Shown here in pieces: positions 16,722-36,025 of a DNA stretch of 64,000 nt. The stretch's first letter is position 1, and each line of letters opens with the position of its first letter. A program made the translations under genes and the position numbers. The stretch is taken from contig CAVTWA010000004.1 of the NCBI GenBank assembly GCA_963738025.1, forward strand, positions 470,042 to 534,041. Direction: 5' to 3'. The stretch comes from an uncultured Acidobacteriota bacterium. Its GTDB lineage: Bacteria > Acidobacteriota > Terriglobia > 20CM-2-55-15. The notes below the pieces were generated by a model that saw only the letters and a program-made list of their open reading frames with translations, did no database searches and was not told the DNA's origin.

Positions 16722-16779
16722 GGTAGTGATAAGCCACAGATGGTAATTCGTCCCGAATTACCATCCGTGTATCACTACC
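16722..16779. repeat. Hybrid palindrome: family-1 arms around a family-4 core fragment
   Basis: ggtagtgataagccacagat-ggtaattcgtcccgaattacc-atccgtgtatcactacc, between convergent genes. Confidence 0.7.
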
Positions 16780-22672: not shown

Positions 22673-23539
22673 CTAGTGCGACATTGCGTATACGACAACG
22701 TTTGAAACAAAGCGAAACGCATAGGCGGAATACTCGGCCGGGTATGCGGGGTCGTCTGCCCATTCGAGACCGTCGCCGAGATCGGTATTCCAGGCCATCA
22801 ATACTATGATGCGGCCATGTTCATCGAAGATGGCAAAGACCTTGGGAATCTTGCCGGATGGGCCGTTTTCCCACTGGTCGCATTCGGCACATTCCGCGAT
22901 GGAGTCGTTCGTCACTTGAATGATTGTGTCGATATCGTAGAAACAATGAAACAAAGGATGAGAGGTTGTCAGTTCGACGGGTTTCGCGTCCGGAATCACG
23001 CGGCGAAGTTGCTGTAGAAACTGGTCGAACTCTTCATCGCCGTGAAAGTCATCAGCAAACCATAAACCTCCGCGTCCGAGGTATTCCCGTAGATTCCTGA
23101 CTTCCGCTGGTCCGAGTACCATCTGCTCCGGTTCGACCGAATAAACGAACGGGTACTGGAATAGTGCAGGACTTGACGGGTCGACGAGAACTGGCCGCCC
23201 GACATCCATTCCCGTGAGGCGGTGAAGGAGTGTCGTCAAGTGGTCATCCATGTTCGGATAGTCCGTGTACCAGTTCTTCACGTAATCCGGTATGCCGCCG
23301 GGATAGCGCATGCGGGCGAACTGAAATCGGGTTATTCCCTGGGCTAAGGCATCGGCGCGCGAATCGGCGGCAAAAGAGTACCAGATGATAGGTATCAGGC
23401 CGCCAATGATGATGAACCCCAGACTCACCGCAAAAATGCGGGGACGGATAAGCCACGGATTGAACGGATCTAACGGATTGAATCCGTTCAATCCGTTAGA
23501 TCCGCGGCTTATCCTTCTCCGAATTTCTTCTTGCGTCAT
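22673..23539 (-). CDS. DUF4159-family protein (N-terminus includes an in-frame family-1 repeat if the start is 23539)
   Basis: FQFARMRY, WYTDYP, LREYLGRGG..FADDF, HPLFHCFYDI and NTDLGDGLEW motifs. Confidence 0.85.
   Translation of the reverse strand: MTQEEIRRRISRGSNGLNGFNPLDPFNPWLIRPRIFAVSLGFIIIGGLIPIIWYSFAADSRADALAQGITRFQFARMRYPGGIPDYVKNWYTDYPNMDDHLTTLLHRLTGMDVGRPVLVDPSSPALFQYPFVYSVEPEQMVLGPAEVRNLREYLGRGGLWFADDFHGDEEFDQFLQQLRRVIPDAKPVELTTSHPLFHCFYDIDTIIQVTNDSIAECAECDQWENGPSGKIPKVFAIFDEHGRIIVLMAWNTDLGDGLEWADDPAYPAEYSAYAFRFVSNVVVYAMSH
23446..23514. repeat. Family-1 palindromic repeat (69 bp)
   Basis: ggataagccacggattgaacggatctaacggattgaatccgttcaatccgttagatccgcggcttatcc. Confidence 0.9.
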
Positions 23540-25979: not shown

Positions 25980-26229
25980 ATAAGCCACGGATTTACTGCA
26001 GGGGCGGTCATAGACCATCAGCTGTCCAAGATAAAGACGGATACCCCGGTGAGCGTGTATTCGTAGTCCCCGCCTAAGTTAGGCGGGGACTGGTCCACCA
26101 GCGTTACAGCCAAACCAGACTTACATCGCATCCATTACATTCAAACCTTTACAGGGCGCCACTTGCGGCTCCCCGTCCATTCTGTCTTGGACGTATGGTC
26201 ATAGCCCCTACAGTAAATCCGTGGCTTAT
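25980..26229. repeat. Family-1 palindrome split at its centre by a composite element
   Basis: ataagccacggattta on the left and taaatccgtggcttat on the right flank the insert. Confidence 0.85.
25995..26215 (+). mobile_element. Composite REP-linker-hairpin-linker-REP element (about 220 bp)
   Basis: ctgcaggggcggtcatagacc ... gtccccgcctaagttaggcggggac ... ggtcatagcccctacag. Linkers are shared with the 35670, 51090 and 57830 copies. Confidence 0.75.
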
Positions 26230-29991: not shown

Positions 29992-30627
29992 ATGCATTCC
30001 TTTACCCTTGAAACATCGAAACTTACGCCGGCACAGACACGCTTCCATATGCTCAAAATGGAAGACACGTTTCGCGAACAGGTCCTCGCTATGGCTTCGA
30101 CTCTGGTGTCGCTGGTCGACCTTCGGGATTGTTATACGGGGGGTCACAGCACACGGGTTGCGGAATACAGCCACCGGATTGCCGTCGAGCTTGGAATGAA
30201 TGACCAGGAGACGGAAACACTGCTTCTGGCAGCTTCGCTTCACGATGTCGGCAAAATCGGTGTACCGGACCACATCCTGCTGAAACCAGGTCGGTTAACC
30301 GATGACGAGTTTGAGTACATCAAGAAACACTCCGAGTTTGGCTGGATGGTCTTGCACGGCGTTGAGGGGTTCGAGGAAGCCAGCCTCATCCTTCTTCATC
30401 ACCACGAACGTTTCGACGGTGGCGGCTATCCGGGCGAACTGTCGCACGAGCAGATTCCTTTCGGCGCCCGTATCGTTTCCGTTGCGGATACCTACGATGC
30501 CCTGACCACCAACCGTCCATACCGCAAATGCTGGGAACACAATCGTGCGGTTGACGAGATCGCCCGCTGTTCAAACACGCAGTTCGATCCCAAAGTCATC
30601 GACGCATTTCTGCGCGCGTTTGCATAA
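29992..30627 (+). CDS. Stand-alone HD-GYP domain protein (putative cyclic-dinucleotide phosphodiesterase)
   Basis: YTGGHSTRV, LHDVGKIG, HHHERFDGGGYP and ADTYDALTTNRPYR motifs. Confidence 0.92.
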   Translation: MHSFTLETSKLTPAQTRFHMLKMEDTFREQVLAMASTLVSLVDLRDCYTGGHSTRVAEYSHRIAVELGMNDQETETLLLAASLHDVGKIGVPDHILLKPGRLTDDEFEYIKKHSEFGWMVLHGVEGFEEASLILLHHHERFDGGGYPGELSHEQIPFGARIVSVADTYDALTTNRPYRKCWEHNRAVDEIARCSNTQFDPKVIDAFLRAFA

Positions 30628-30699
30628 TTCGGGGACGGTTGCCTAAATCACCTGAATTGCGCTGCAATTTAGGTGATTTAGGCAACCGTCCCCGAATTA
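30625..30699. repeat. Family-4 palindromic repeat (TAATTCGGGGACGGTTGCCTAAAT...ATTTAGGCAACCGTCCCCGAATTA)
   Basis: Near-perfect 75-bp palindrome whose two ends are the TAA stops of the convergent flanking genes. Confidence 0.9.
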
Positions 30700-33369
30700 C
30701 CTCTTTCCAGCAAGGATGAAAGGCGCCCAGTCCAGCGGGTGCGGAAACTCTTTCCGTAAGGCCTTTTGAGCCGAAGCTAAGGCCTGTTGCTTGCTGCTTC
30801 CACCACACCATTGCGAATAAAACAGCTCAAAGAATTTAACCGATGGCTCGGGCCGGATCTTCCATAACTCGAGCAACACTGAACGACACCCGGCATATAA
30901 AAGAGCTCGAAGTAAACCGAGCAATCCCTCGATATCGCCACTGACGTTCATAAACGTCTCTCCAGAACAGATGGACAGCAGATTCGTCTGCCACTGGGAC
31001 GCATAAATGTCAGGAATGGTGAACGGGTCGTCGGCAAATTCCAATCGGGAGAGAATCGGGTTGTCATGCTTCAGGGCAACGCGCGCATCGGTGTGGATGT
31101 AGTTGGCGACCACATTGTTCGCTGGTTTCGATACAGCGCGCAATGGCGTGTTATCGATAACGTCGGGGCGTTCGAGGCAGTACTTCAGAACGGAACCACT
31201 GGGTGCGTAAGAGATGTCGAACAACTCGGACAGATAATGCTCGCCATCGAAAAACGCGTGGAACGGAATGCGGTGCAATACGCCGTGCGGAACGACGATC
31301 AGACCGGACGTTTCCAACAGCGGCATGATGGGGAGTACCAATTCGCGATAGAAGTGATGCATCAACTGGTCGGCAGCGTGGCGGCGTACGGCGACGTCGG
31401 CCTCTTTGTTGGGAAACAGCGCCGAAAACCTTTCCATCTGATATTGCAGCCGGCCGGCAAAGAACTGAACACGCTTTACGGGAGTGACGTGCCGTACGGC
31501 GCGGAATTTCGAACGCGACATGACGAACGCCATGACCTCGTCGCGCACGAAAAAGTATTCGACGACGGTCGTATCGTCGGGGAGCGCTTCTTGAAGTTCC
31601 TCGAGTCGGACGCTGGATGCGACCTGAAGCGACACGTATTCGGAATCGGATTTTGAAAGCTCCGTTAATGTCCGCACCAGTTCATCTTCGCGCACCTCGA
31701 CTTGCTCGCCCTGCGGCAGGCCGGGTGTTGCAAGAAATTCCGGACGAAAACGCAGATACGAGCCATTGAGTTCTCCACGAAGTCGCTCGACCCTGGCGAT
31801 CAGCCTTTCGTCTGCTTTACTGCGGATGGATGGAAGATGGGGGGCGAGAGCATCGACAAAAATCTGCGATTTCGCCTTCTCGCTCCAGGTATATGCCCGG
31901 GCGTTCGATTCCGCAGTCTCCTCCGACGAAAGCGTGAGGTAGACGAGCGACTCGAAAACCTCCGCCTTACTTTTGTAGAAAGTTATACCGAGTTCATCGT
32001 GGTGCAGATGGGTGTGCCGCAGTTCGATTTCCCGCGCCGCCTTCTGATAGAAGGTGCTGGCGCGCGCCAGTTCACCTTCCCGTTCCGCGATCTCGGCGGA
32101 CAACGCATAGCAGGCAAACAGAAAGAGCGCGATTTTGGCTTCCTCGGCCAGCTCCTGAACGACACGCGCGTGAAGCTCCGCCTCATCGATGCGTCCTAAT
32201 CCCAGGCAGACGCGTCCCAGCAGAACCAGCGCAATAAGCCGCTTGGCCGGATATCCCAATTCCGCAAATTTCGCGTCGGCGGCACTGGCGAGCGAGTGCG
32301 CCTCCCATAAGCGGCCGATCGAGAACAGAACTTCGGCGCGATATAAATCCAGCAACGCGGTCCAGAACGAATTACCGTCCTGCTTCAGGACGGATTGCGC
32401 CTCTTTGAAGGTGGCAAGCGCGTCTCCAAATTGCCTCTTCTGTGTCAGCGCCACCGCACCAAACACAATGGCTTTGCCTTGTTCGTAGGGCATGTCCAGT
32501 TCGGCAAACGATTTTGCCGCGGCCTGCGCCAGAACCAATGCATCGTGGGGTAGCCGGAGCTGGACGTAAATCTCGGCTTCGTCCAGATCGCACAGGGCCG
32601 CATGCAAATGACTTCCGTCGTTAAGAAACATCTGGCGCGCATCGCGATACATGATGAGCGCCTGACTTAACCGGCCGGAGAGGAAGTAAACGTAAGCTTT
32701 GTTGTAGGCGGCATGAGCACGTAAATCGGACCAGTTCAGCCGTGCTGCGATTTCGTCGCACTTCCCATACATCTCCTCGGATTCGGCGAATCGATCCTGG
32801 AAGCACAGCGTGCTTCCCAAGTTCAGATAGGCCTGCGCCAGCGCCCTTTCATTGCCGATCTGATTGAAAAGTTCGGCGGCTTCGAAGTGGCATTGAACAG
32901 CGCGTTCATAATCGTCCAGCCGCTGATAGACGGCTCCGAGGTTTGTGGCGAGTTTCGCAAGCGAAGCATTGTCGCCGCCGTGACGAAAGATCTGCTCCGC
33001 TTCGGCAGCAACTGCCAGCGCTTCCCGTGACTGCCCCGTGAGGGAAAGTGAGGAGATGAACCCCAGGCGCATCCGTGCGGCGCGCTGGGTCTCGCCTGCC
33101 TGGTCGAACGCCGGGATCGCCTGCCGGTAATAGGTAATGGCTTCGACCCACTGTTCATTTGCAGTCAAGGCATAAGCCATCATGTGCCAGGCTTCGCGCA
33201 GGAACCGGGGATCACCCGACTCTTCCGCAACGGATAAGGCCGAACGGGCGGCAGCGACGCTCTCCTCGGAAAGGGCATTGCGGGGACGTCCGCCATAGAG
33301 GTTGCTCTGACGTATCCTTCCCCAAAGCTCTTCCAGGGTCCGTTCGAGAGCCGAAATACCCGTCTCCAT
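30697..33369 (-). CDS. TPR-repeat plus CHAT (caspase-HetF-like) domain protein with degenerate active site
   Basis: TPR segments (NLGAVYQRLDDYERA), then SEKAKSQ, VVEYF, IVVPHGVLHRIPFHA, LLYAGCRSVLLELW and HPLDWAPFILAG. Alternative TTG start at 33387. Confidence 0.85.
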   Translation of the reverse strand: METGISALERTLEELWGRIRQSNLYGGRPRNALSEESVAAARSALSVAEESGDPRFLREAWHMMAYALTANEQWVEAITYYRQAIPAFDQAGETQRAARMRLGFISSLSLTGQSREALAVAAEAEQIFRHGGDNASLAKLATNLGAVYQRLDDYERAVQCHFEAAELFNQIGNERALAQAYLNLGSTLCFQDRFAESEEMYGKCDEIAARLNWSDLRAHAAYNKAYVYFLSGRLSQALIMYRDARQMFLNDGSHLHAALCDLDEAEIYVQLRLPHDALVLAQAAAKSFAELDMPYEQGKAIVFGAVALTQKRQFGDALATFKEAQSVLKQDGNSFWTALLDLYRAEVLFSIGRLWEAHSLASAADAKFAELGYPAKRLIALVLLGRVCLGLGRIDEAELHARVVQELAEEAKIALFLFACYALSAEIAEREGELARASTFYQKAAREIELRHTHLHHDELGITFYKSKAEVFESLVYLTLSSEETAESNARAYTWSEKAKSQIFVDALAPHLPSIRSKADERLIARVERLRGELNGSYLRFRPEFLATPGLPQGEQVEVREDELVRTLTELSKSDSEYVSLQVASSVRLEELQEALPDDTTVVEYFFVRDEVMAFVMSRSKFRAVRHVTPVKRVQFFAGRLQYQMERFSALFPNKEADVAVRRHAADQLMHHFYRELVLPIMPLLETSGLIVVPHGVLHRIPFHAFFDGEHYLSELFDISYAPSGSVLKYCLERPDVIDNTPLRAVSKPANNVVANYIHTDARVALKHDNPILSRLEFADDPFTIPDIYASQWQTNLLSICSGETFMNVSGDIEGLLGLLRALLYAGCRSVLLELWKIRPEPSVKFFELFYSQWCGGSSKQQALASAQKALRKEFPHPLDWAPFILAGKR

Positions 33370-35651: not shown

Positions 35652-35669
35652 AGCAGGAAGGAATTGAAC

Positions 35670-36025
35670 GCGCGGTCTATGACCATACGTGTGCAAGACG
35701 GGATGGACGGGGAGCTGCAAAGTGGCGCCTTGTATAGGTTTGAATGTAGTGGATGGGATGGAAACCTGGGACCAGTCCCCGCCTGAGTTAGGCGGGGTGC
35801 CTTCGCGCAGCGAAGGCGGGGCGGTCTGTTCAAAGACGCGAAGCGACCTTATGGATTTCCGCGAAGCGCTCAATATTAATCGGTGCGCTTCGCGAATATC
35901 TGAAAGGACGCTTCGCGACTTTGAACAGACCGCCCCAGCCTCGCTGCGCGAGGGCATCCCCGCCTTACTAAGGCGGGGACTGGGGACACGCTAACCCAGC
36001 GCGCGGTCAGAGACCGCGCCTACAG
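35670..36025 (-). mobile_element. Most complete composite element: REP, linker, cruciform core (35775-35980), short linker, REP
   Basis: gcgcggtctatgacc ... cruciform ... gcgcggtcagagaccgcgcctacag; lies inside the moxR operon. Confidence 0.8.

Follow-up and report, generated by a model that had tools for sequence, protein, structure and literature searches.

Concentric nesting of non-coding palindromic repeats in the intergenic DNA of an uncultured Terriglobia bacterium

The 250 nt at positions 25980-26229 of the window (the whole 64-kb stretch of DNA analysed here, contig C4, positions 470042-534041 of the source genome) carry palindromic repeats nested one inside the other: between the arms of an outer palindrome, F1, lies M215, an element of ~214 bp that terminates on each side in half of a REP sequence and in turn contains a 21-bp hairpin, HP. 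Nested palindromic layers had been proposed at this place in an initial annotation of the DNA, and their presence was confirmed. The stack likely consists of palindromic repeats that are non-coding and non-autonomous, and it likely grew stepwise, as elements entered or replaced the centres of hairpins already present. We show below to which family each layer belongs, where the exact junctions lie, that the REP layer is linked to RAYT genes, and that filled and unfilled alleles exist at REP apices and at the centre of another palindrome, F5.

Results

Layout of the stack at positions 25980-26229

The two outer arms (25980-26005 / 26204-26229) are 26 nt long and complementary at 25 of 26 positions (96%), in agreement with the match first claimed for them, and the central arms (26065-26077 / 26079-26091), 13 nt long, are 100% complementary. 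Folded as single-stranded DNA, the 250 nt exhibited an energy of -59 kcal/mol (z = -8.2), and 0 of 200 shuffled sequences folded as well. A BLAST search of the whole source genome with the 250 nt returned 760 matches; every layer is a high-copy family genome-wide, and the layers are thus not due to chance. The REP pair described earlier inside the F1 arms is real and its GTAG-type tails are inverted, but the two copies of its 11-nt apex motif, GGTCATAGACC and GGTCATAGCCC, situated 191 nt apart, form a direct repeat. The features are collected in Table 1.

Table 1 Features of the stack and of two companion sites, with positions in the window.
Feature	Positions	Strand	Description
F1 left terminal arm	25980-25995		ATAAGCCACGGATTTA; single 9-bp module, a typical F1 arm having 2-3 modules
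REP-A left half (GTAG-type)	25996-26016		Tail CTGCAG, stem GGGCGGTC, loop ATA, then GACC
M215 interior, armA ('I190' MITE)	26017-26064	+	Starts with the inner terminal inverted repeat ..CAGCTGTCCAAGATA..
HP hairpin	26065-26091		CCCCGCCT-AAGTT-AGGCGGGG plus 3 nt per side; solo X200' terminal hairpin module
M215 interior, armB	26092-26196	+	149 copies genome-wide; ends in the inner terminal inverted repeat ..TCTTGGACGTAT
REP-A right half	26197-26213		Duplicated apex GGTC-ATA-G, 4-nt deletion, then tail CCCCTACAG
F1 right terminal arm	26214-26229		TAAATCCGTGGCTTAT
Second M215 copy	35665-36024	-	Full X200' between two mirror-image HP hairpins
F1-like arms around a 21-nt palindrome	16722-16779		Arms GATAAGCCACAGATGG / CCATCCGTGTATC

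The stack is intergenic; it begins 5 nt past the stop codon that closes an ORF of 814 aa. Among the relatives, G006 has the best synteny with the source genome (~75% DNA identity), and its orthologous spacer measures 44 bp and is free of any element, so that the stack is a recent arrival. With Rfam 15 at gathering score, 0 matches were obtained across the 64-kb window, and apart from forming a strong intergenic hairpin the stack is probably without a function.

Companion sites in the window

The second M215 copy is made of three concentric inverted repeats with arms of 20, 26 and 76 nt, and its fold reached -137.5 kcal/mol (z = -16.7). Full hairpins occupy 35776-35797 and 35957-35978; of the REP sequences, the one at 35665-35684 is a half and the one at about 36000-36024 is complete. 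The larger cruciform with the hairpin on both ends, reported at first for 35670-36025, was seen again as the 76-nt-armed palindrome between the HP hairpins.

The site at 16722-16779 had been read as a family-4 core inside F1 arms. Its right F1-like arm is 3 nt short and its exact 21-nt core is unique in the genome. Family 4 does exist, its arms GTAATTCGGGGACGGTTGCC giving 67 and 69 matches genome-wide, but the core resembles it only in the outermost 8 and 11 nt, which is too little to establish membership. Family 4 itself is a palindrome with arms (N)TAATTCGGGGACGGTTGCC, present in the window at 30624-30700, 46016 and 49988 (C4:500665-500741, 516057 and 520029).

Source genome and compared genomes

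The source genome, G000, is a 75-contig draft assembly of 9.15 Mb with 56.4% G+C. About 300 kb of this draft is present twice at 90-100% identity, on allelic contigs (C42/C43, C1/C5, C40/C41/C5), which fits the contamination estimate of 6.6%. Blocks of long A and G runs inside small contigs (C21:26125, C61/C62) look like assembly artefacts. On contigs C51 and C73, near the ends of their alignments with C45:22787, we found also a tandem array of about ten units of ~41 bp (TTTGGTCGTCGTAGCACGCGCTTGTCGACGACCAAATTGCA-like), each of them a small palindrome; the array adjoins a gene on the opposite strand and is missing from the C45 allele.

Besides G006, the comparison included the complete genome G011 and G041, another Terriglobia MAG. 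Over ~150 kb, G041:C1:1-161 kb and G000:C51:234-386 kb (234009-386131) are 97-98.7% identical. This near-identical part of G041 belongs to a 1.38-Mb contig on which, at 790 kb, a conserved gene is just 68% identical to the window copy, and all five F1 copies of G041 lie within the first 140 kb of the contig. The contig is either chimeric or the result of a recent transfer of a very large segment.

The REP layer and its RAYT genes

The REP sequence of the stack, REP-A, has the consensus YTGTAG-GCGCGGTC-TRT-GACCGCGC, with 201 intact copies in G000, and several further genera of the same family also carry it. The orientation of the loop goes together with the side that bears the GTAG tail (84 copies versus 3), and 12 copies are double-tailed. 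'REP REP' doublets occur at 29 loci, and REPINs with their tails outward are common.

The initial annotation had suggested looking for RAYT genes flanked by the repeats, and such genes were found in G000, G011, G005 and G017. In G011, a protein of 155 aa scored 88.4 bits on the NCBIfam model REP_Tyr_transpos (NF047646; cut-off 80), with three REP-A copies within 350 bp upstream of its gene. A protein search located the G000 homologue on C31 at ~469.2-469.6 kb; it is 49% identical to the G011 protein, scored 47.3 bits on NF047646, below the cut-off of 80, and exhibits REP-A upstream and a degenerate REP-A downstream. The homologues of G005 and G017 have REP-A on both sides. Judged from these sequences, REP-A is a true GTAG-tagged REP/REPIN family with its own RAYT (HUH tyrosine transposase) gene. 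The reading frame of the G000 copy is interrupted at least twice, in the region of codons 84-113 and close to the N-terminus, with both middle breaks at homopolymers; it may be a pseudogene, or the breaks may be an assembly error at the homopolymers.

The Pfam Y1_Tnp profile detected one gene in G000, on C6, flanked by a different repeat (GGGACAGRTCACTTTTT). That REP-A has no RAYT, as this single gene could suggest, was ruled out by the second G000 gene, which matches the G011 RAYT. In five relatives REP-A was absent within the loci of the Y1 genes; a weak sixth match, in G011, is the REP-flanked RAYT.

A truncated ORF of the IS110 family (G000:C25:148380-149117; L015:1303-2040), which scored 43.5 bits over the first 155 of 343 profile positions, directly adjoins a REP and an M215 fragment. 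IS110 elements target REPs. The C6 gene detected with Y1_Tnp (G000:C6:437866-438492; L001:1468-2094), RAYT-like as well, encodes 208 aa, scored 60.3 bits on REP_Tyr_transpos, under the cut-off, and is flanked by inverted GGGACAGRTCACTTTTT repeats with 44-61 occurrences in the genome. These repeats contain GGGGACAG, fitting the GGGGWSAS motif of the TIR-flanked TIRYT/TIRtron group, which has been reported in Acidobacteria (PMC3733652).

M215 and the inner MITE

M215 joins two halves of the GTAG-tagged REP-A to an interior (armA-HP-armB) of ~190 bp. There are about 150 copies in G000, of which 69 were matched at full length by nhmmer, and its arms were not among the matches listed in 40 relatives. 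Of 35 pairs of apex loops bracketing the interior, 21 consist of identical loops, 5 of inverted and 9 of other loops; the 25 pairs that could be oriented by armB comprise 10 mm, 7 pp, 7 pm and 1 mp. Since solo REPs almost never have the 'wrong' loop for their tail, a duplicated loop is the mark of a single REP whose tip was opened and then copied to each side, in one or the other orientation. An ordinary REPIN at C51:342.1 kb, the clearest case, has its right-hand REP split by the interior, with GGTCACAGACC on either side and the tail on the natural side only.

When the interior is read with the ends GACC..GGTC, its inverted ends measure ~27-30 nt (GACC-ACAGCTGTCCAAGATAGAGAC.. and the inverse) and the REP loop is duplicated over 3 bp. 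By its inverted ends, the loop duplication and the copy number of armB, the inner element fits the criteria of a MITE, its non-coding character being taken from the size of ~190 bp. Among the like-end pairs examined, 250-8000 bp apart in the 75-contig draft, there was no candidate for an autonomous partner with the ends of the inner MITE, of F1 or of X200'.

In the tree of armB copies, 21 of 146 nodes have a support of at least 0.9. The X200 state required 34 changes on this tree, compared with 40.3 after shuffling, and the control label, the armA subfamily, 55 compared with 62.6. Recurrent events and descent are not separable on this tree, the control label being equally unstructured.

HP as a terminal module of X200'

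X200' is a palindromic element of ~210 bp with 144 full-length loci, composed of HP, a second hairpin (h2), a core of ~120 nt, and then the mirror image of h2 and HP. It lies inside at least two other outer families besides M215, and 61 of the 144 full copies have no adjoining M215 arms. The same HP-h2-core-h2-HP layout was found in other genera, with CCCCTCCT..AGGAGGGG hairpins (a compensated change). Under a strict definition there are 92 copies; an HP can be recognised on each side in 48 of them, and the HP loops are of equal length in 44 of these 48; all 44 pairs are mirror images and 0 are direct. Since the loops are mirror images in every one of these pairs, HP is part of the inverted ends of X200' and not a duplicated target. 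That the central hairpin served as an insertion target is accordingly not borne out: the mirror-image loops and the layout in other genera make HP the terminal module of X200'. Nor is its position central, HP being off-centre in M215 with ~48 nt of armA on one side and ~105 nt of armB on the other.

The 101 M215 copies with a solo HP have 62 loops of AGT type and 37 of ACT type. This mixture fits a formation of the solo HP by collapse of X200' through either stem, a direction that we infer.

An assignment of X200' to the IS200/IS605-derived PATEs, whose subterminal hairpins face the same way on one strand and which lack terminal inverted repeats, was rejected, because all 44 measurable pairs have mirror-image HPs and X200' is palindromic over its full length, with arms of 76 nt. 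A further level of nesting was noticed in X200' copies with an insert of ~35 nt (ATATTYAGGCTTCGCCCTATCGGGCTCGC..) at one fixed point in the right inverted end, among them G000:C4:423702-423833, C3:320236, C3:317059 and C5:385219.

The outer palindrome F1 and other palindromic families

The arms of F1 consist of GATAAGCCACGGAT followed by 9-bp ACGGATTKA modules. The arm pattern gave 276 and 278 matches in G000, compared with 0 for a reversed control pattern. F1 palindromes measure 25-97 bp, with 9-bp steps between 43 and 70 bp and a second size group at ~79-90 bp that has a GGGCGC..GCGCCC core; a subfamily CACGAATT is also present, and F1 alleles differ by one module. Of 283 arm pairs, 280 span at most 97 bp, and one pair, 645 bp in length, seems to have come about by chance. 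A palindrome of another family lies exactly at the centre in 2 of the 283, namely in the stack at 25980-26229 and at C67:447959-448075, around an F6 element; both filled copies keep just the outermost portion of each arm.

F1 arms gave zero matches in the 40 relatives searched, and when species genomes were scanned, this outer repeat turned up in a single further one, a 'Terriglobia bacterium' MAG. Within the near-identical segment of G041 and G000, 4 of 5 F1 copies lie in gap-free aligned blocks and are hence common to both genomes. A TA target duplication at the junction of F1 and M215, with the minimal 25-bp F1 at C2:13616 as the empty site, was considered and dropped, since the flanks of other M215 copies, read by eye, have no duplication in common. 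Of the '+-' pairs of F1 arms separated by 1.6-5.5 kb, the one in the window surrounds ordinary genes. In the ORF on the minus strand at 22673-23539 of the window, the N-terminal ~30 residues (..NGLNGFNPLDPFNPW..) are translated F1 at ~23447-23510, and its true start is probably further downstream.

At least eight repeat families crowd the small intergenic space of G000. Among the others are F5 (..CACAAGAAGCACAAGAGGCACA..), F6 (AAATGACTAATGACTATTGACCATT.., ~20 copies), M2 (ends CTTAGCGCGG, with HP or X200' inside) and M3 (ends ..TGCTTTTCGTAATTACG..).

Filled and unfilled alleles and centring of the insertions

Three allelic events were informative, all of them within palindromes, two centred to 1-2 nt and one off-centre. 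In the first, C42 has a REPIN (REP, 22-nt spacer, REP) at the locus where C43 carries M215::X200'; the two contigs have in common precisely the outer halves of the REPs, as far as GACC on one side and starting with GGTC on the other, so that the junctions fall at both REP apices. In the second, G041 has an intact F5 palindrome with 40-nt arms, and the C51 allele of G000 has outer F5 arms of 20 and 19 nt around an M2 element of 156 nt with a solo HP; this is an unfilled site of the kind that the initial annotation had proposed to look for in close relatives. As far as its sequence tells, the F5/M2 site presents the same picture as the F1 arms at 25980-26229. In the third, at another locus of C43, a 190-bp M2 element with a solo HP lies in the left arm of an F5 palindrome, 10-15 nt off the tip. 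Both centred events are replacements that removed inner sequence and not simple insertions; gene conversion through shared outer modules explains them equally well and is a live alternative for them. Each of the changes may be a gain or a loss.

The remaining indels between these two genomes, either simple deletions or replacements of a complex kind, are uninformative on nesting. One of the presence/absence differences, of 149 bp (G041:C1:39745-39893 against G000:C51:275754/5), has its right end exactly at the junction of loop and right arm of a terminator-like hairpin, AAAAGGGGGGCGCACA..TGTGCGCCCCGCTTTT, of which G000 keeps the right half only.

Centring was then measured across copies, by comparing the 12 nt outside each element with cross-paired flanks of other copies and scoring perfect complementary runs of at least 6 nt. 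Such runs were found in 18 of 201 F1 flanks, compared with 0.7% after cross-pairing, and in 2 of 55 REP-tailed elements, compared with 0.14%, the copy at 25980-26229 being left out as its right end is deleted. For F6, runs of at least 8 nt were present in 3 of 11 copies, compared with 1.7% after cross-pairing. Nesting in all three groups exceeded the cross-paired controls. A general complementarity of the flanks around REP-tailed elements, which we had expected, was not observed, the cases being rare (2/55). Exact-centre nesting is real, and it concerns a minority of copies. The proposal that the elements insert at, or are rebuilt from, the apex of hairpins is supported by the REP loops, by the C42/C43 locus and by the F5 site of G041, but one M2 lies in an F5 arm and 2 of 283 F1 palindromes are filled. 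A mobilisation targeted to structure, also proposed, does not follow from these data, which are equally compatible with targeting of sequence.

Discussion

Origin of the stack

In the reading that we consider likely, the first layer comprises the outermost 16 nt of each arm of an F1 palindrome. The second is a GTAG-tagged REP of a REP/REPIN family, the RAYT presumably moving REP-ended units. The third is a ~190-bp MITE situated in the REP loop, with direct duplication of the loop (ATA..ATA) or, by the other reading of its ends, of the 11-nt apex, and it may have been moved by an unseen transposase. IS3-type elements insert in REP loops similarly. The innermost layer is a single terminal hairpin, left from an older X200' or common with it, and the solo HP might arise when X200' collapses between its hairpins. 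We likewise infer in what order the layers at 25980-26229 came together. For the non-REP layers no mobilising enzyme was found in our searches.

An account without apex targeting, in which a composite of REP halves, arms and X200' was assembled once or a few times and then amplified as a unit, appears unlikely. Smaller palindromes would then be internal-deletion derivatives, the double-tailed REP, the solo HP and the minimal F1 would come from recombination between duplicated hairpin modules, and the 'dolls' would be read inside-out. The stems of duplicated modules are also direct repeats and as such deletion substrates, and there are fusion forms in which HP and the X200 end share AGGCGGGG, as this account would have it; F1, F5 and REP occur, however, in hundreds of insert-free copies, and REP-A and X200' are found in genera without M215 among the matches listed. 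Solo HPs with either loop orientation (62 vs 37 of 101) are expected from collapse of X200' through either stem, and X200'-bearing and solo-HP forms exist within both M215 and the M2 outer family. The interior nevertheless lies also inside an ordinary single-tailed REP of a REPIN, loops are duplicated in either orientation with respect to the interior (mm 10, pp 7), and the intact F5 of G041 has inner arm sequence that is missing from the G000 allele, all of which argues against amplification of a ready-made unit.

Rather less credence is due to a history without transposition, in which replication stalls at hairpins, and template switching or gene conversion between dispersed copies with short palindromic modules in common (REP halves, HP, outer arms) swaps interiors and rebuilds mosaics. 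Both centred allelic differences are substitutions with ~20 nt of shared outer sequence per side, and one deletion ends at the tip of a hairpin of unrelated sequence, which speaks for such exchanges; insertion at a staggered cut accounts better for loops that are duplicated directly and, with respect to the interior, in either orientation. The armA subfamily, the X200 state and the loop types are distributed nearly at random on the armB tree, so that the modules look reassorted, but with 21 of 146 nodes at the support given above the tree is poorly resolved and random association is weak evidence. The coupling of tail and loop in solo REPs, 84 to 3, implies moreover that conversion tracts across loops are rare.

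It is very improbable that independent intergenic repeats came to lie together by chance, or that the stack is a functional structured RNA or a terminator: the crowding of the small intergenic space by at least eight families and a strong fold placed 5 nt past a stop codon would agree with it, but the exact symmetric junctions, nesting above the cross-paired controls, the 0 Rfam matches at threshold in the window, the element-free 44-bp spacer of G006 and copies that are polymorphic between alleles all speak against it.

The likely reading, successive insertion or replacement at hairpin centres, could be carried further. Unrelated non-autonomous families (REP-ended units, M2, F6 and the inner MITE) might share one landing rule, the single-stranded tip of any extruded hairpin, often with symmetric removal of the inner arms; palindromes would then grow by self-nesting, and the process would be directed by structure, through enzymes of HUH/RAYT type acting on ssDNA or through hairpin-break repair. 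We regard this extension as doubtful.

Relation to known systems

Enterobacterial BIMEs and the mosaic repeat regions of Neisseria are composed of few palindromic modules and linkers, recombined in varied order, and the stack at 25980-26229 is also a mosaic of palindromic modules. BIMEs are linear arrays of REPs and linkers, whereas here unrelated families form concentric nests.

REPINs and RAYTs were described by Bertels & Rainey (2011, PMC3337134) and GTAG-tagged REPs and their dimers by Di Nocera et al. (2013, PMC3733652). REP-A shares with the repeats treated in the accessible portions of these papers a short GTAG-tagged palindrome, hundreds of intergenic copies, inverted doublets with the tags outside, centre bases that mark the orientation, a REP-flanked RAYT gene, and the presence of one REP family across related genera. 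It differs in that many REP ends are here halves wrapped around a foreign MITE of ~190 bp, giving a composite of >200 bp in about 150 copies, and in the broken frame of the G000 RAYT copy. A REPIN of the size and make-up of M215 is not described in those portions of PMC3337134 and PMC3733652.

Insertion at the symmetry axis of REPs has been reported for ISPsy8, ISRm22, IS1397 and IS621 (Tobes & Pareja 2006, PMC1525189), ISPsy8 being inserted 'just at the symmetry axis' with a 3-bp repeat. Within what the available part of that paper presents, our case is alike in the exact axis, in a short direct repeat (3 or 6 bp there, a 3-nt loop or an 11-nt apex here) and in the use of either orientation. 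In contrast to these elements, the inserted one is here non-coding and itself palindromic, and a transposase with matching ends was not found in the draft; for the truncated IS110-like ORF that adjoins a REP/M215 copy, we obtained no evidence of involvement.

REP dimers inside longer palindromes are known from Anabaena variabilis (GTAG-15), Halothiobacillus neapolitanus (CGTC-1) and Thermomicrobium roseum (GTAG-23) (PMC3733652, section 7). There, as in the stack, a REP-ended unit is centred in a longer palindrome that is itself repeated. In two of those three species the outer palindrome was not found without the REP, whereas the F1 palindrome has ~280 copies with only 2 holding a foreign element; up to four layers are found here, and both empty and filled alleles were seen.

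The hierarchy had been thought not to correspond to any described system. Related cases have in fact been published (PMC3733652, section 7, and the available part of PMC1525189), so that insertion at REP symmetry axes and REP dimers in longer palindromes are already known. In our searches of open-access text on nested bacterial MITEs and on palindromic repeats of Acidobacteria, no multi-layer nest like that of 25980-26229 came up.

Significance of the nests

The present data extend REP-RAYT systems, and RAYT-like systems flanked by TIRs, to an uncultured Terriglobia lineage in which such repeats are a visible share of the intergenic DNA, and in genomes of this kind the nests account for assembly breaks and spurious ORF extensions. 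If the preference for the apex holds, it would show elements of the REPIN type gaining cargo and growing into larger composites. If it extends genome-wide, the lineage, with at least eight palindromic families and same-species alleles, would offer a natural system in which to ask whether small mobile elements recognise the shape of a hairpin tip over its sequence.
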